From assembly GCF_036495085.1 (NCBI RefSeq), contig NZ_DASXNL010000008.1, forward strand, positions 30,015 through 94,014: 64,000 nt of DNA, read 5' to 3'. Each line of letters starts with the position of its first letter. The stretch's first letter is position 1. The stretch comes from Phenylobacterium sp. (lineage in GTDB: Bacteria; Pseudomonadota; Alphaproteobacteria; Caulobacterales; Caulobacteraceae). The notes beneath the pieces were generated by a model. The model did no database searches. It worked only from the letters and a program-made list of their open reading frames with translations, and was not told where the DNA came from. The position numbers and the translations under genes are program-made. Shown one piece after another: positions 21,019 to 27,734 of the stretch.

Positions 21019-21701
21019 ATGAGCACGCGTATTGCGACTGTTGTGACGGCGGCTGCGGCCGCCTGGACCTTGGCGGCGGCCGGCGCCGGGGCCGCGAGCG
21101 TGGCCGTGAGCGCCGACCGGCTGCTGGACGTGGCGAGTGGAAAATATGTCGACAAGCCGCGGGGGGTGATCACCGACGGTCGGATCTCGGCGGTGGAGCA
21201 CCAGGGCGAGGCGGTTCCAGCCGGCGCCGAGCCGGTCGACCTGCCTGGCGTGACGCTGCTGCCCCCCTGATCGACATGCACGTGCACCTGACGTCCTCGC
21301 CACTCTACGCCGGCTACAACCAGCTGCAGTTTACCGACAGTTTCTGGCCGAACATCGGCGCGGCGCACGCCAAGGCGACGCCCGAGGCCGGCTTCACAAC
21401 CGTGCGCAACGTGGGCTCCCAGAACTTCGACGACGTGGGCCTGCGCCAGGCGATCGACGCGGGGTATGTCCCAGGGCCGCGGATCGTGACGGCCACATAC
21501 GCCATCGGCTCGACCGACGGCCACTGCGACTCGACCTTCTTCCCCCCGTCGATGAAGCAGAAGGGCGATGCGGTCATCGACAGCCCCGACGCCGGCCGAC
21601 AGATGGTCCGCCAGCTCCACAAATACGGCGCCCAGGTCATCAAGATCTGCGCCACTGGCCGGCATTGGGTAGCAGACACAACCAAGCCGACGCGCGCGTA
21701 A
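21019..21701 (+). pseudogene. Frameshifted and truncated secreted amidohydrolase (Xaa-Pro dipeptidase-like)
   Basis: Signal peptide and VDLPGVTLLP in one frame; (L)IDMHVHL..AGFTTVRNVG..GPRI..GHCD..IKICATG in another (1-nt loss in CCCCCC at 21262-21267); homology stops at ~21660, C-terminal half absent. Confidence 0.85.
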
Positions 21702-22033: not shown

Positions 22034-22627
22034 ATGATACGACGAGTGATGACTTGGGGCCCGGTGGTGGGAACGGTCGCGGCAGGGACCCTGCTGATCG
22101 GCGCCGAGCCTGTCACGCCTAGGCCCTTCCCGCCCTTGCCGGTACCGCCCATCCCGCACCAGGCCGTGCCGCCATACCTCGCGCGGATCACAATTTCCGG
22201 CGATGCCAAGATGACCGGCGTGTTCGAGAGTTGCGTGGACCCGGCGGCGATTATCAGGACCGCGCAGGCGCGGGCGAAGGCTCGAGCGGCGGATGCGCCG
22301 TCGCCTGTAGCCGGGTGCAGCCATACGAGCGAGGTGCGGGCGGATGGCTCCGTCCATACCGAGATGAGCTGCGACCGGGCGAAGGGCGCGAACGCCAGCT
22401 TCCGCATGATCAGCGATGGGACGCCGAACGACCTGCGCATGCATTTGGAGCGGTACGAACCCGCGACGGGGGCTCCGAAGACGACCATCTCCGACAGCCA
22501 CATCGTCCGCCTGGGGCCGTGTCCAGCCGACCTTGAGCCAGGCCAGATGCGGCGGCCCGGCGGGTCCATCATCGACAGGGGCGAGGCGGCGCGGCTTCTT
22601 GAGGACGCCCGAGGCACGGCTCCCTAG
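22034..22627 (+). CDS. Secreted hypothetical protein, DUF3617-like
   Basis: N-terminal hydrophobic segment, four spaced Cys, terminal ..RLGPC.. pattern typical of DUF3617; start uncertain (21959/22034). Confidence 0.55.
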   Translation: MIRRVMTWGPVVGTVAAGTLLIGAEPVTPRPFPPLPVPPIPHQAVPPYLARITISGDAKMTGVFESCVDPAAIIRTAQARAKARAADAPSPVAGCSHTSEVRADGSVHTEMSCDRAKGANASFRMISDGTPNDLRMHLERYEPATGAPKTTISDSHIVRLGPCPADLEPGQMRRPGGSIIDRGEAARLLEDARGTAP

Positions 22628-22654
22628 GGAGCGACACCCTGTCCGGCCGCATTG

Positions 22655-22747
22655 GGTCGTCAGCACGCTTTGGCTTCCTGCCCGAAACTTGCCGTTCACG
22701 GGGGTTGGCCGCCGGTTAGCTGAATGTCTCGAATCCGGCGCCATCCC
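22655..22747 (+). repeat. ~93-bp intergenic repeat, copy A
   Basis: Hand alignment gives ~72/93 identity to 25641-25732 (shared GGTCGTCAGCAC, TTGGCTTC..GCC.G.AACTTGCC, AGCTGAATGTC, GAAT.CGGCG.CATCCC). Confidence 0.85.
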
Positions 22748-22773
22748 GGCGGCAGCTCGTGGCGCGTCACGGC

Positions 22774-23286
22774 CTACAGCCGTCCAGCCGCCTTTAGTGA
22801 AGCTTCGATCTCGGGAAGGGACCGAAATAGCAGATACGGATCGGACGGAGAGGACAGGAAGCCGTGCCGTTTCCAGAACTCGATCGCCTCCTCATCGATG
22901 GCCCGCACCAAGACGGCGCGCCCGCCGGTAAGACGAGCACCGAGCACCGCGCGCTCCAGCGCATGGCCGAGGAGAGCTGCGCCGAGACCATGGCCGGCGT
23001 AGGCCAGGTCAATCGCGAGCTGCCCGAGCAGCAGACAGGGTATGGGGTTCGGAGGCTGGCCGGTCCGGATTTTCCTCGGCAGGACTGCGGCCTCGATGGC
23101 GGTCGGCGACAGCCCGTAGTAGCCGACGACCCGCTGCTCATAGTGAACGACGACAACCACGGTGAAGCCGTTCCGTTGGTTCGCCACTGCGCGGCTCTTC
23201 AGCCACGCGTTCAGCGCGGGCTTGCCGCAGTCGAAGCTTGTGAGGTCGTGGTTGGAGGTAAGGACCTCGGGCGCGGAGAACGACAA
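22774..23286 (-). CDS. GNAT acetyltransferase toxin (TacT/AtaT family)
   Basis: FDCGKPALNAWL, VVGYY.L, PIPCLLLGQLAID..YAGHGLG..LL, AIEFWKRHGF. Confidence 0.92.
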   Translation of the reverse strand: MSFSAPEVLTSNHDLTSFDCGKPALNAWLKSRAVANQRNGFTVVVVVHYEQRVVGYYGLSPTAIEAAVLPRKIRTGQPPNPIPCLLLGQLAIDLAYAGHGLGAALLGHALERAVLGARLTGGRAVLVRAIDEEAIEFWKRHGFLSSPSDPYLLFRSLPEIEASLKAAGRL

Positions 23287-23547
23287 CTACTGTTCCCAGG
23301 GCGTCCGGCGCTTCAGTAGCTCCACCATCTCAGGCACGGCCGCTGGTGACGCATCGAGGGCGGCCTTGAACGCTTCGAAATCAGCGGGATCCAATCGGAC
23401 AACCGATTGTTCCAGCAAGACCTCTTCAGCGGCTCGTACGGCGGCCTCGCGCACGAAGTCGGTCCGCGAGCGGCCGCGCAGATCGGCTGCTCGGTCGATG
23501 ATCGCCAGGTCCTGTTCCGGCAGGCGCATGGAAAGTGGCGTGGTCAT
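23287..23547 (-). CDS. DUF1778 RHH antitoxin (TacA/AtaR family)
   Basis: LSMRL....IIDRAADLRGRSRTDFVREAA..AAEEVL..Q..L...DFEAF.AALD. Confidence 0.92.
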   Translation of the reverse strand: MTTPLSMRLPEQDLAIIDRAADLRGRSRTDFVREAAVRAAEEVLLEQSVVRLDPADFEAFKAALDASPAAVPEMVELLKRRTPWEQ

Positions 23548-23569
23548 CGGACTACCTCCAGGGCCCTAA

Positions 23570-23599
23570 ATTAGTTTGATGTAGCGCATTTTGCAATAC
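23570..23599 (-). promoter_or_regulatory. TA promoter with palindromic operator
   Basis: Minus strand TTGCAA-N17-TAATTT; palindrome GTAnnGCA-N3-TGCnnTAC (23581-23599) overlaps -35; RBS GGAGG downstream. Confidence 0.65.
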
Positions 23600-23785
23600 G
23601 GACCGGGGTCCGGGCCATGGCTTCAGCCTGCGCGCCGCTGAAGGACTGTGCGAATGTCGGGTTGCTGCACATGATCCAATTTCCGCTTGTGGCGCTAAGG
23701 AGCTGAGGGCGCGCGGCCTGTCTTGTCTCAAGCTGAGGCGTTGGCCGATGTCGCTGGAGTTTGAGACTCCCTTTATGCCTGCGAT

Positions 23786-24727
23786 TTGGGGCCGCGATCG
23801 ATGCGGATCGCGAGACGACAGCAGGATCAACTCGTGACGGTCAGAACAACGCCGCGTAGAGCATCGCCGGCCAGGCCGATGAAGGTTCGCGATCGGGCTT
23901 TCGATCTGCACAAGACCGGGGTCGAGCGGTTTGACTGGCGCGACCCGTACCACGTGGCCGTGACGATCTCCTGGCCAGTATTCGCCGGACTCGCCTTTGG
24001 CGGTCTGCTCGCGCTCAATGCGGTTTTCGCGGGGCTTTATGTGCTCGAGCCGGGAGCCGTCCAGAACCTGCCGCCAGGCGACCTGGCCCGGGCATTCTTC
24101 TTTTCGCTCGAGACGCTAGCCACCGTGGGCTACGGGGAGATGGCGCCCCAGAGCCTCTATGGACACTCCGTGGCTGGGATCGAGATCGTGGTGGGCATGG
24201 CCTGGGTCGCGATCTTCACGGGCCTGCTGTTTGTCCGATTCTCCCGTGCTCAGTCCAAGATCCTGTTCGCCGACAAGATCGTGGTCGCGCCCCACAACGG
24301 CGCGCCAACGCTCATGGTCCGGATCGCCAACGGCCGCATGACCATGCTCACGCACGCCTCGGCCCGCCTCACAGTCTTGATCCCGGAGATCTCATCGGAA
24401 GGCTATTCGTCGCGGAGCGTTCATGACCTTCGGCTGGTGCGCGACAACATGCCCATCTTCCCGCTGACCTGGACAATGATGCACGTCATCGACGAAACCA
24501 GCCCGCTCCGCGGGCTCGGCCCCGATGAGCTCCGCGCGAAGGATGTGCGTCTATTCCTTACGGTGGAAGCCCGCGACGCCGCCCTCGGTCAAGTCGTGCA
24601 GGACCTCGCCGCCTTCCGGCCACACCAGATCGCGTTTGACCGTCGGTACGCGGACGCCGTTACCGTCGATGAACAGGGGCGCACCGCAGCCGATATTTCG
24701 CTACTGAGCGAGTTGGTCGAACTATAG
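23786..24727 (+). CDS. Inward-rectifier (KirBac-like) K+ channel
   Basis: FFFSLETLATVGYG filter, two TMs, GLLFVRFSR, LMVRIANGR, WTMMHVIDETSPL; start uncertain. Confidence 0.93.
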   Translation: MGPRSMRIARRQQDQLVTVRTTPRRASPARPMKVRDRAFDLHKTGVERFDWRDPYHVAVTISWPVFAGLAFGGLLALNAVFAGLYVLEPGAVQNLPPGDLARAFFFSLETLATVGYGEMAPQSLYGHSVAGIEIVVGMAWVAIFTGLLFVRFSRAQSKILFADKIVVAPHNGAPTLMVRIANGRMTMLTHASARLTVLIPEISSEGYSSRSVHDLRLVRDNMPIFPLTWTMMHVIDETSPLRGLGPDELRAKDVRLFLTVEARDAALGQVVQDLAAFRPHQIAFDRRYADAVTVDEQGRTAADISLLSELVEL

Positions 24728-24836
24728 GCGGACGCCCCCCACGCCGTGAATGTCCGGATGTTGGAGGAGCTGCAAGGTCCGAAACTGGCGCTGAGCTGCC
24801 GTCCGGCCCTCAATAATCAGCGCCACCGGGGCAGGT

Positions 24837-25268
24837 TTAGTCTCGCGTCGCTAGGTTCTTTCCGGTGGGGTGTAAGGCCAGAAACGCCTTGAGGATCTGG
24901 TTGAAGAAACCCGGAGGCACGAAGCCATAGTCATAGCGATCCTTGCGGGCGACTTTCCTGAGATCGTACCCAGGCCACAAAAACTCGTTGCCCTCCGTAA
25001 CGACCACCCAAGAGCGCTGATCGTCCAGCCCCAAGTGACGCTTGACCGGTGCAGGGATCTCGACCGCTCCGCCTGGGATGGTCGGGGCGCTGTGCGTGAT
25101 CGGGAGCACGGTGACGACCGTCGCGCCGTCCGCTTCACGATCTACCGCCAAGACGATCACGCTCGGGCGATCTTTGAGCCCCTCGTCTTGTCCGGCTTGG
25201 TGCTCGCGGCGCCAAAGATAGGCGTAGGCGATGACGAGGCCCGTCTCCGGGGTAGGGATCGTCGCCAT
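24837..25268 (-). CDS. PemK/MazF-like toxin (divergent alphaproteobacterial family)
   Basis: G.VI.YAYLW..E..G.DEG.KDRP.VIV, VTVLPITHS.P, HLGLD..RSWVV..E.N.F.WPG.DL. Confidence 0.7.
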   Translation of the reverse strand: MATIPTPETGLVIAYAYLWRREHQAGQDEGLKDRPSVIVLAVDREADGATVVTVLPITHSAPTIPGGAVEIPAPVKRHLGLDDQRSWVVVTEGNEFLWPGYDLRKVARKDRYDYGFVPPGFFNQILKAFLALHPTGKNLATRD

Positions 25269-25277
25269 GCGGCGGGA

Positions 25278-25550
25278 CTATTTCGGGTCGAGTAGGGCGT
25301 CGAGATGCGCGTGGCGGGGGTCCATACGCGATCCAGCAATCGCTCTTACCTTTTCGTCCGATAGCTCAGCGGTCGCGAAGCTTTGGCGCTGCTCTCTGAA
25401 GCGCCTAAATTCCTCGTAGTCATCCGGTCCAATAAAGTAGCCCGTGACCTGGCCATGGCTCGACACGGCTACGACCTCTCGCTGAGCCTGCATCCGATAG
25501 CGACCAAAATTTCGGGTGAACTCTGAGGCGGGTACTACTGTTGCTGCCAT
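25278..25550 (-). CDS. Phd/YefM-type antitoxin
   Basis: VPASEFTRNFGRY..AQREVVAVSSHG..TGYF..PDDYE Phd-like N-terminus; directly upstream of toxin. Confidence 0.8.
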   Translation of the reverse strand: MAATVVPASEFTRNFGRYRMQAQREVVAVSSHGQVTGYFIGPDDYEEFRRFREQRQSFATAELSDEKVRAIAGSRMDPRHAHLDALLDPK

Positions 25551-25581
25551 CGGGACACTTTCCTCTCGCGCCTCTTAATAT

Positions 25582-25612
25582 GCGTCAATTACGCGATTTA
25601 CGCAAGTTACGC
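25582..25612 (-). promoter_or_regulatory. Probable TA operator: 3 x TTACGC at 9-bp period plus one inverted half-site
   Basis: TTACGC at 25589, 25598 and 25607; GCGTCA at 25582. Confidence 0.6.
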
Positions 25613-25640
25613 GGGTATGCGTTGATGGAAGAACTATACC

Positions 25641-25732
25641 GGTCGTCAGCACAAATTGGCTTCTCGCCGGGAACTTGCCATCGACGGCGCGAGCCGCCCG
25701 GCAGCTGAATGTCTTGAATTCGGCGGCATCCC
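25641..25732 (+). repeat. ~92-bp intergenic repeat, copy B
   Basis: Direct repeat of 22655-22747. Confidence 0.85.
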
Positions 25733-25749
25733 AATGGCCGCTCATGGCG

Positions 25750-25969
25750 GATTGTGTTGAAAAACTCCATTTTTGGCGACCGCCCCCGAAATTCCGGGCC
25801 TCTGGCGGGACGTTTGAAATCGGACGCGGGGGACACCGTGCGAAATGACGCTGAACCCCTCAGTGCTCATCCCAGTTCGAGCACGGCGGCATCAATTGCT
25901 GATTTGGCGTCGCAAGCTCATTCAGGCCAATTTTTGAAGCCCCCGATTTCGGGGTTTATCAGCACAATC
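25750..25969. mobile_element. 220-bp MITE (non-autonomous, IS1182-like ends)
   Basis: TIRs GATTGTGTTGAAAAACTCC / GGGGTTTATCAGCACAATC (16/19 complementary), flanked by GGCG direct repeats (25746-25749, 25970-25973); no credible ORF. Confidence 0.8.
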
Positions 25970-26027
25970 GGCGCAGAGCGCTCATTGCGCGGTTGGCAAC
26001 CATGACAGGATCGACCGCGCTTGACCG

Positions 26028-27734
26028 TTACTGCCAGTCCAACAAGCGCCGGCGCCTGTCGGCCTTCAAAGTGGCCAAGGCCTTGTCGTAGGCGTTGAGT
26101 TTCGCAGAATTGGCCTCCTGGCGGGCAAACACCTTGTCGCCAAACTCCATCACCTGGCGGGCCTTCGGGTCATAGGTTGGCCACGTCGCAAGCCCCGGCC
26201 CGTTAGGGTCACCGGTCTTGACGAACCGCACCCAGGCCCCGCTCATCGCGGCCCCGAGGGCTTGGTCCGTGGCGTCTAACCCACTGATTTTCATGGATGG
26301 GTGTGCGAAGTTGTCGAGCGCGTAGACCATCTCGCTGGAATGGAAGCTACCGGCGATGGGGGGCAACCCGAAGACCTTCCAGGTGGCCCGGGTGAATTCA
26401 TAGCGCCAGACCGGCTGGTGGTGGACAGACATCGCGCGGGCGGCCGATCGCGCGCTGGCGACGAGGAGCCAATCGGTCACATACCGGATCGCGGCTGGCT
26501 GCACCTCGGCGTCCTTGGTCGCCGGATATAGCGACAGCAGAGTGTCGGAAACGGCGGGATAGCGGCGCTGTGCGAAAACGCGCCAGTCCTCGACCGTCTT
26601 GATCGGCATGCCAAATGAGAAGACCGAGCCATCGTCGGCGGTCGTGCCGACGAGCAGCGGAACCCGCGCCACCTTCCCCGCGTCGAACAGCGTCATCGGC
26701 TCGTCGGGCAGAACGTGACCATCGACGATCGGCCAGAATTCGATGCCCCGGTCAGAGAACTGCAGATCGGTCCGGACCTGAGCCTTCGCCAGCAATTCAG
26801 CCGCCGACAAGTGGCGCAGGGCCTCGATATCGGCGCCCACCGAAAGTCCTTCAGCCTCGGCCGACCGTAGACCATAGGCCGGCTCGCGCAGGTGCTGCTG
26901 CGGATACCAGACATAGCCAGGGCTTTCGCTGATCCCAGACCGGAACAGCCCTTTCGCCAGCGGCGAGGCCATCAGGTAGAGCACGGACACTCCGCCGGCG
27001 GAACAGCCCATGATCGTCACCTTCTTCGGATCGCCGCCGAAGGACGCGATATTCGCCTGAACCCATTTCAGGGCGGCGATCTGGTCGAGCAGACCGTAGG
27101 CGCCCGACGTGCCGGAAGGATCCTCCTTCGACAGCGCCGGATGCGCCATGAAGCCAAACACTCCGAGTCTGTAGTTGAAGCTCACGACGACGACGCCGCG
27201 TCTGGCCATCGCCGCCCCGTCTTCGGCGGGGAATGCGCTGCTGCCGCCGAAGAAACCGCCCCCGGGGATGTCCACCATGACGGGAAGCCTCTCGCCCGCC
27301 CTGTGTGGCGGCGACCAGACATTCACCGTCAGGCAGTCCTCGCTGACGTGGGTGAGGTCGGTTGGCGGCCCCGGCGCGGGGCCCTGCATGCAGGGCGAGC
27401 CGAACGCCTCGGCCTTCAGGACGCCCTTCCAGCCGGCCGCCGGCTGCGGCGGGCGCCAGCGCAGCCGTCCGACCGGCGGCGCGGCGAACGGGATGCCCTT
27501 GAAGGTCGCGACCCCGTCGACGTCCAGCCCCGAGACCTCGCCTGAGCGGGTCACGACGATCGGCGACCGGGCCTCGGCCGGCAGCGCGGCCGCCACGGAC
27601 GCCAGAACGAAACCGCAGATGCTGGCGACGGCGCCCAGTCGCCCGAGCGGCGACCGGGTCACGGCCCTGTGATATGACTCGGACGAACCGCGGGGCGAGG
27701 GGTTTGGGGCTAGTGCTTGCGAAGATATCGGCAT
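26028..27734 (-). CDS. Secreted type-B carboxylesterase/lipase (pNB-esterase-like)
   Basis: FKGIPFAAPPVG.LRW, SEDCLTVNVW, GGGF.GGS, NYRLG.FGF, DQIAALKWV..NI..FGGDP, GCSAGG nucleophile elbow; start uncertain (27734 or GTG 27662). Confidence 0.92.
   Translation of the reverse strand: MPISSQALAPNPSPRGSSESYHRAVTRSPLGRLGAVASICGFVLASVAAALPAEARSPIVVTRSGEVSGLDVDGVATFKGIPFAAPPVGRLRWRPPQPAAGWKGVLKAEAFGSPCMQGPAPGPPTDLTHVSEDCLTVNVWSPPHRAGERLPVMVDIPGGGFFGGSSAFPAEDGAAMARRGVVVVSFNYRLGVFGFMAHPALSKEDPSGTSGAYGLLDQIAALKWVQANIASFGGDPKKVTIMGCSAGGVSVLYLMASPLAKGLFRSGISESPGYVWYPQQHLREPAYGLRSAEAEGLSVGADIEALRHLSAAELLAKAQVRTDLQFSDRGIEFWPIVDGHVLPDEPMTLFDAGKVARVPLLVGTTADDGSVFSFGMPIKTVEDWRVFAQRRYPAVSDTLLSLYPATKDAEVQPAAIRYVTDWLLVASARSAARAMSVHHQPVWRYEFTRATWKVFGLPPIAGSFHSSEMVYALDNFAHPSMKISGLDATDQALGAAMSGAWVRFVKTGDPNGPGLATWPTYDPKARQVMEFGDKVFARQEANSAKLNAYDKALATLKADRRRRLLDWQ

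Follow-up and report, generated by a model that had tools for sequence, protein, structure and literature searches.

Palindromic DNA is a target for ISs of several families. Within the IS1182 family, some members target palindromic sequences, according to a 2015 review by Siguier as it is cited in PMC4923244, and the staphylococcal IS1272/TnSha1 inserts into hairpins or inverted repeats (PMC4923244). Its insertions follow no sequence consensus; the stem is cut bluntly, the hairpin is partially deleted and no target duplication is made (PMC4923244).

Palindromic repeats of the REP kind are used as targets by ISs with transposases of other families. ISRm22 of Sinorhizobium meliloti, which belongs to the IS4 family, subgroup IS4Sa (PMC2266710), inserts exactly at the axis of palindromy of REPs, mostly in clusters (PMC1525189). 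All copies of ISRm22, of IS1397 and ISKpn1 (IS3 family) and of ISPpu9 and ISPpu10 (IS110 family) lie in a palindromic repeat, as do the elements considered here, and clustering, in this case of half-sites, is seen here as well. The REPs hit by these ISs are of the classic, high-copy kind, unlike the palindrome described below, which in its strict form is rare. We also weighed whether ISRm22 belongs to the clade discussed here; an IS4-family element that makes 6-bp duplications, it is an analogue only.

ISMno9 and ISShsp2 (Methylobacterium nodulans pMNOD02, Novosphingobium pCAR3) share more with the present case: the terminal sequence GATTSTGTTGAAAAACTCC, a 4-bp duplication and palindromic flanks (the last checked for the ISMno9-family copy on pMNOD02), together with a transposase whose N-terminus is 78-83% identical to that of a truncated copy in the genome studied here. 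They are autonomous elements of ~1.55 kb encoding a 460-aa transposase, whereas the element described here is 220 bp long and has the ends only, with no gene. Unlike IS1272, this clade has a conserved target sequence, inserts at the axis of its target and generates a 4-bp duplication.

Bacterial MITEs such as the Correia elements and MITEAba12 are short, bounded by terminal inverted repeats (TIRs) and devoid of a transposase gene; they are multicopy, are bordered by a duplication of the type that the parental IS makes and form a long hairpin, all of which applies to the present element too. To our knowledge, most described bacterial MITEs do not have a palindromic target consensus of such length.

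Here we analyze a 220-bp element in a 64,000-nt stretch of Phenylobacterium sp. DNA (the window). We put at about 0.85 the probability that it is a MITE with termini of the ISMno9-like clade of the IS1182 family, mobilized in trans into the axis of a palindrome that belongs to a ~110-nt repeat.

Structure of the element

The element was read directly from the sequence, and its parts are listed in Table 1. The dinucleotide AT separates the left palindrome arm from the left copy of the GGCG duplication, and CA separates the right copy from the right arm. The left terminus, GATTGTGTTGAAAAACTCC, and the reverse complement of the right terminus, GATTGTGCTGATAAACCCC, match at 16 of 19 positions. Folded as DNA, the element forms a single long hairpin (-44.7 kcal/mol, z = -2.99), as is usual for MITEs, and an inverted-repeat search identified a second, subterminal inverted repeat (CCCCGAAATT… / …GATTTCGGGG). 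Two overlapping 83-aa ORFs run across it, for which a Pfam search returned zero matches. The earlier note, made from the letters of the window, had described a 220-bp element with 16/19 TIRs and a GGCG target duplication; this description is exact to the base, and all of its numbers are correct.

Table 1. Coordinates of the element, its target site, the host repeat and related copies. Positions are those of the window unless a contig (C) is named.
Feature	Position	Strand	Remarks
5' half-site (arm) AATGGCCGCTC	25733..25743	+	fits left-flank consensus AA.GTCCGCT of 41 IS insertions
Left target-site duplication GGCG	25746..25749	.	4 bp; also precedes the elements at C32:9621, C171:76508 and C131:27722
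MITE body	25750..25969	+	220 bp; no ORF with a family match; one long hairpin
Left terminal inverted repeat GATTGTGTTGAAAAACTCC	25750..25768	+	first 16 bases identical to IS terminus at C131:27722
Right terminal inverted repeat	25951..25969	-	reverse complement GATTGTGCTGATAAACCCC; 16/19 vs left
Right target-site duplication GGCG	25970..25973	.	4 bp; read from sequence
3' half-site (arm) GAGCGCTCATT	25976..25986	+	fits right-flank consensus AGCGGAC.TT
Repeat copy B	25641..25749	+	~110 nt; 3' end is the interrupted palindrome; 76% to A over 110 nt, E 1e-15
Repeat copy A, uninterrupted paralogue	22655..22764	+	reads through ...GCTCGTGGCG-C; paralogous empty site
Third ~110-nt repeat copy, uninterrupted	C135:2404-2515		87% to A, E 1.6e-32
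Shorter family member (…GAATGTC…CCAATTTCCGCTTGTGGCG)	23646..23694	+	between TacA-like antitoxin and Kir-like channel genes; model seed
Weak candidate family member	24745..24790	+	between Kir-like channel gene and second toxin-antitoxin pair; non-seed; nhmmer E = 1.1, suggestive
Full-length MITE copy	C32:9621-9837		217 bp; blastn
Full-length MITE copy	C171:76508-76724		217 bp; blastn
Partial MITE copy	C21		~120 nt; 87% vs window copy
Partial MITE copy	C28		left 80-160 nt
Partial MITE copy	C32, first 54 nt		right end, cut by contig boundary

The boundaries of the element deserve attention, since the inverted-repeat search joined arm, duplication and terminus into one continuous 37-nt repeat of 76% complementarity (25732-25768 / 25951-25987). 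If the palindrome halves were part of the element, it would measure 254 bp with 37-nt TIRs, and a target hairpin would not exist, a reading with which the similarity of the flanks of different copies agrees. We nevertheless regard it as very improbable: a 4-bp direct duplication stands between arm and conserved terminus, the left arm is continuous with the 110-nt repeat, and uninterrupted paralogues of that repeat cross the insertion point. The flanks, moreover, vary widely, in contrast to the nearly invariant inner 16 nt, and two near-identical copies of a related IS in a single genome of Bradyrhizobium neotropicale (L077 and L078) have different flanks, so the flanks are target DNA lying outside the IS.

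Copies of the element

The genome is represented by a 95.6%-complete assembly of 4.5 Mb in 197 contigs. Homologues of the interior were found by blastn on four other contigs; in total there are three full-length copies and three that are partial or truncated by a contig end, distributed over five contigs. The interior thus recurs at at least four other loci, and the full-length copies measure 217-220 bp. The copies on C32 and C171 are 94% identical to each other and ~74-78% identical to the one in the window.

Across the 4.5-Mb genome, six exact occurrences of the terminal 15-mer GATTGTGTTGAAAAA were counted, besides two ends that differ from it by one mismatch. Allowing up to three mismatches, the terminal pattern gave 32 matches against 8 for a reversed-pattern control; the terminus is repeated more often than by chance, and the element in the window is a real MITE. 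At C8, C32, C171 and C131 the left junctions read CCAAYG.C..CT..T-GGCG in a single register. All eight near-exact ends, as well as the diverged right end in the window, adjoin an AATG.C.GCT-like arm when judged by eye, some of these arms being weak, which to that extent answers the earlier note's question of whether other copies sit in the same kind of site.

A search of 60 related genomes did not detect the interior in any of them, and two exact-word scans of metagenome contigs returned either nothing or only 21-nt chance matches. Joining the flanks and searching 60 genomes of the same genus disclosed no orthologous empty site; the orthologous site was not found there because the flanking region is accessory. 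Mobility is therefore deduced from the multiple copies and not from direct observation. In place of the empty site in relatives that the earlier note had named, there are uninterrupted paralogues in the same genome: the nearest available equivalents, copy A and the copy at C135:2404-2515, both run through ...TGGCG-C with no insertion.

Two observations concern the surroundings of such copies. Only ~45 nt separate the C32 copy from a tRNA gene, measured to the gene's 3' end (…GGTGGGATTCGAACCCA; C32:9838-9900), and a palindrome-rich stretch at the end of C47 likewise terminates at a tRNA gene, so that the MITE-associated repeats seem to cluster in typical integration hot spots. Separately, solo ends at C135:9215 and C106:14091 read GATTGTGTTGATAAACTCGGCGGTTGGGATCGCGGGA, and one of them adjoins a AACTTCCGCTCAGGGTC arm. 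Their terminus is related, but the two have only 46 nt in common and were set aside; they are remnants of a different element whose terminus is of the same kind.

Autonomous relatives in the IS1182 family

One of the six exact termini, at C131:27722, shares the 16 starting bases of the MITE and lies at the same kind of site. An ORF of 167 aa starts 80 nt past this terminus, and its best match is to NF033551, the IS1182 family transposase (E 6e-50, 170 bits, profile positions 2-141 of 488); the score falls below the 270-bit cut-off because only 141 of the 488 profile positions remain. The sequence turns unrelated beyond about residue 145, which marks this IS copy as truncated. What remains of the ISMno9-like element (C131:27722-28240) is its left terminus, which is intact, and 144 aa of the transposase; the insertion follows …CTGGCG in one member of the repeat family, two further copies of which lie 2.5 and 2.9 kb downstream.

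A tblastn search of the genome for an intact cognate transposase returned only the C131 fragment. The sole complete IS1182-family element in the assembly, at C23:124833-126304, is ~32% identical and has different termini (CTAGGAGCC…). It belongs to another clade: 1472 bp long with termini CTAGGAGCCYGTCCGAKTAATC, it contains a 463-aa frame that scores 367 bits to NF033551. Given the truncation at C131 and the different termini at C23, an intact cognate transposase is absent from the 95.6%-complete assembly, and since only a truncated cognate IS is present, the MITE is probably a fossil that can no longer move in this strain.

Such transposases do exist elsewhere. With the 144-aa fragment as query, 80 related loci of 74-88% identity were found in many alphaproteobacterial genera, including Bradyrhizobium, Mesorhizobium, Caulobacter, Brevundimonas, Phenylobacterium, Sphingomonas, Erythrobacter, Paracoccus and others. 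Pairs of termini spaced 1.0-2.5 kb apart, with GATTGTGTTGAAAAAC at both ends (up to three mismatches), numbered 52; the set analyzed below (n = 41) was limited to elements 1.4-1.7 kb long for which no less than 30 nt of either flank was available. All of these 41 full-length relatives (~1.5 kb), from other Alphaproteobacteria, have the GATTGTGTTGAAAAAC terminus in common. The closest annotated relatives on plasmids are named 'IS1182-like element ISMno9 family transposase' (82.6%) and 'ISShsp2' (78.5%), and the ISMno9-family copy on pMNOD02 is 1548 bp long, with terminus GATTCTGTTGAAAAACTCC, a CGCC duplication and palindromic flanks. The autonomous partner for which the earlier note called is accordingly found in 41 full-length versions in other genomes, but in this genome only as the truncated copy at C131.

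The left terminus of the MITE matches the left ends of full-length ISs, with 16-nt identity to many of the 41, and the right terminus matches IS termini with 2-3 changes. Similarity is confined to the ~20 nt at the ends: comparison of the MITE interior with the interiors of the 80 IS loci revealed none beyond them. On sequence grounds, then, the termini (~19-22 bp) resemble those of the ISMno9-like clade, the 180-bp interior is unrelated and a transposase gene is absent, in keeping with the earlier proposal of a non-autonomous element; the predicted partner transposase is of the IS1182 family, ISMno9-like clade.

A short element with IS termini might also arise if a full-length IS had inserted at this site and later lost its middle part by deletion, in which case the 220 bp would never have moved as a MITE, and the truncated IS at C131 does show that ISs of this type decay. 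This is hardly probable, as the interior is unlike that of any of the 80 IS loci beyond the ends and is shared with at least four other loci; homology to an IS interior and evidence of segmental duplication, which would favor this reading, are both lacking. Movement as a MITE remains the preferred account. The earlier note had named, as grounds for abandoning its own reading, that no other copies or autonomous ISs share these TIRs and that relatives hold no empty site; most of these grounds fall away, since these TIRs are shared by further copies as well as by autonomous ISs.

The target site

Removal of the element and one GGCG restores AATGGCCGCTC-ATGGCGCA-GAGCGCTCATT, that is, CCCAATGGCCGCTCATGGCGCAGAGCGCTCATTG. 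Across the 11 arm positions there are nine Watson-Crick pairs, one G-T pair and one C-C mismatch, the earlier count of pairs being confirmed on the sequence. The 41 ISs have a corresponding flank consensus, AA.GTCCGCTTTG-GGCC / IS / GGCC-CAAAGCGGAC.TT, in which the axis of the palindrome is the duplicated tetranucleotide. Perfect 4-bp duplications border 27 of the 41, and 14 are without one; GGCC is the commonest, followed by CGCC, GACG, GGCG, CACC and GACC. The ISMno9-like clade thus inserts at the axis of a conserved palindrome, which bears out for this clade what the earlier note had stated of some IS1182-family elements, that they target palindromes. Half-site motifs also peak ~45-60 nt to either side of the IS insertions, and the palindromes therefore tend to occur in tandem.

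The most likely course of events is that an ISMno9-like DDE transposase mobilized the MITE in trans. Its cuts, staggered by 4 bp, would have been placed at the axis of an imperfect palindrome, the general consensus of which is AA.GTCCGCTTTG-GGCC-CAAAGCGGAC.TT and the form in this genome CCAATG.CCGCT..T-GGCG-C…; repair of the staggered cuts would have produced the GGCG duplication. The case is clear but unexceptional, target-specific transposition of this sort being already known.

Whether such a target is read as sequence or as structure was assessed from the pairing of the flanks of the 41 related sequences, scored ungapped over 14 positions in a fixed register, which is a crude measure. On average, a left flank paired at 6.37 of 14 positions when set against its own right flank, at 5.86 against those of other loci and at 3.57 against shuffled flanks; the difference between own and other flanks has a permutation p of 0.03. 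Single flank positions are conserved up to 80-95% (TCCGC / GCGGA), for example G in 39 of 41 and C in 33 of 41. The palindromy is mostly a shared sequence consensus, with little locus-specific compensation. Folded as DNA, the restored site in the window reaches -9.8 kcal/mol (z = -0.35), and 65 of 200 shuffles fold equally well; neither the MITE-bearing site on C171 (z = +0.74) nor the uninterrupted copy ending at window position 23694 (z = +1.41) folds. Since the palindromy is mostly shared consensus and the sites fold poorly, the evidence points to a target made up of two conserved half-sites rather than a folded hairpin, and sequence-specific contacts with these half-sites would be a somewhat more likely means of target choice than recognition of an extruded hairpin.

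Recognition of a folded target, whether an extruded cruciform or a single-stranded hairpin at a replication fork, in place of base sequence is a proposal that has been made for IS1272/TnSha1, also of the IS1182 family, which targets hairpins with little conservation of primary sequence (PMC4923244). Applied here, it would make the MITE evidence of hairpin formation in vivo. The palindromic consensus, insertion at its axis and the slight excess of own-flank over cross-locus pairing all fit, and we consider this possible, though the less probable reading: individual positions are strongly conserved, the shared consensus accounts for most of the palindromy, the folds are unremarkable or lacking, and the clade gives 4-bp duplications and no stem deletion, unlike IS1272. 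Half-site contacts remain the preferred reading. The earlier note had taken the insertion as independent evidence that the hairpins are recognized DNA structures, a step that the near equality of own and cross pairing (6.4 against 5.9 of 14), the conserved half-sites and the several unfolded targets do not bear out. Its description of the site as the hairpin of a repeat family holds for the repeat family, the arm being continuous with repeat copy B; the restored hairpin itself is of no unusual stability (z = -0.35).

With 41 insertions in many alphaproteobacterial genera, the target consensus is well documented for one clade of the little-studied IS1182 family, and the MITE has adopted the same target specificity as these ISs. 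The flanks can be used in annotation to delimit ISs and MITEs of this kind, and a site-directed DDE transposase might be developed from the clade.

The host repeat and the question of cassette sites

A ~110-nt low-copy repeat, found repeatedly at gene boundaries in an accessory region, has the interrupted palindrome as its 3' end. In this region, ORFs with the high third-position G+C found otherwise in the window are missing, and G+C drops to 0.56-0.60 around 25.3-26.2 kb. Copies of the family end on the + strand at 22764, 23694, 24790 (weak) and 25749, and they separate three units, namely a toxin-antitoxin pair (GNAT/TacA-like), the gene for a Kir-like potassium channel and a second pair (PemK/Phd-like).

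A 49-nt model of the family (a GAATGTC-like box upstream, a spacer, and CCAATG.CCGCT..TGGCG) found ~12 copies at E < 0.01, all but one of them hand-picked seeds, so that these E-values are circular, as is that of the member at 23646-23694, itself a seed; non-seed matches are weak (E from 0.006 to >1), and the loose family comprises ~12-30 copies. A search of the genome for uninterrupted copies of the restored 30-nt hairpin, ungapped and with up to six mismatches, found none, and the family is therefore degenerate and not a set of near-identical hairpins. A permissive palindrome regular expression gave 329 matches, mostly noise.

The palindrome was also considered as a classic high-copy REP. 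This was rejected: counts of the strict form GTCCGCT-N4-14-AGCGGAC equaled those of controls in this genome and in eight IS-carrying genomes, with 0-5 per genome, about the control level and far from the REP/BIME figure of >100 short palindromes per genome. An association with a RAYT was likewise discarded, as the sole Y1_Tnp match (C169:817-1179) is IS605-type, lying beside a tnpB-like gene; the element concerned (C169:1-1190) has this tnpB-like gene divergent from a Y1 tnpA that scores 147 bits to PF01797. No RNA family was found by Rfam over 22500-26100 at gathering or permissive thresholds, and a scan of 25500-26100 for promoters and terminators gave nothing above shuffles.

The arrangement of the repeats raises the question of whether the palindromes are crossover sites of an unrecognized site-specific cassette-exchange system, on which the IS and MITE draw as safe landing sites. 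Three copies and a weak fourth (E = 1.1), all on one strand, mark consecutive gene boundaries, in the order GNAT/TacA toxin-antitoxin, Kir-like channel, PemK/Phd-like toxin-antitoxin; comparable same-strand clusters occur on C171, C131 and C87, and the 11-8-11 layout is like that of the core sites of tyrosine recombinases. We consider this unlikely. The genome has no integron integrase above the cut-off (best TIGR02249 score 79 bits vs 265), R''/R' boxes (RYYYAAC … GTTRRRY) are not visible in the repeats, the Y1 transposase is an ordinary IS605-type tnpA, the genes between the sites lie on both strands and the statistical support for family members other than the hand-picked seeds is weak. The target preference of the transposase, moreover, fully accounts for the MITE, which for that reason gives no independent support for cassette recombination or hairpin formation, a caution for the cassette hypothesis about the neighboring sites. 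What the earlier note had called the parasitizing of cassette sites comes down to a site used by an IS transposase, which is all that the insertion shows, the same clade and motif being found in many genomes.

It is similarly doubtful, although conceivable, that palindromes of this kind across the Alphaproteobacteria are functional sites of an undescribed system, either for crossover of toxin-antitoxin and other accessory units or as hairpins extruding in vivo. If they were, insertions of the IS family would serve as a natural probe for such sites in many genomes.

Further features of the region and its repeats were noted. The ~110-nt direct repeats (76%) bracket a 3-kb unit holding the GNAT/TacA-like toxin-antitoxin pair, the Kir-like K+ channel gene and the PemK/Phd-like toxin-antitoxin pair. 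At window positions 21019-21701, an amidohydrolase-like frame is split in two (83 aa and 141 aa) and ends abruptly near 21700; it is either a pseudogene bordering the accessory region or an artifact of assembly. A second palindrome subfamily has the loop TCGCGACCCC in the layout …GCAAGGACCGC-TCGCGACCCC-TTGGCGGACATTGG and occurs at C23:128443, C103:2225 and 2927, C176:639, C137:65090, C174:70631 and C135:4013/4128/6042; it is preceded by ~80 nt of conserved upstream sequence with further direct copies of the AAGGTCCGC half-site. On the opposite strand, the 5' half of the 110-nt repeat resembles a second subfamily of the palindromic repeat (…GCCAA…GCTGACGACC), and the 110-nt unit may therefore consist of two inverted units in a REPIN-like arrangement.
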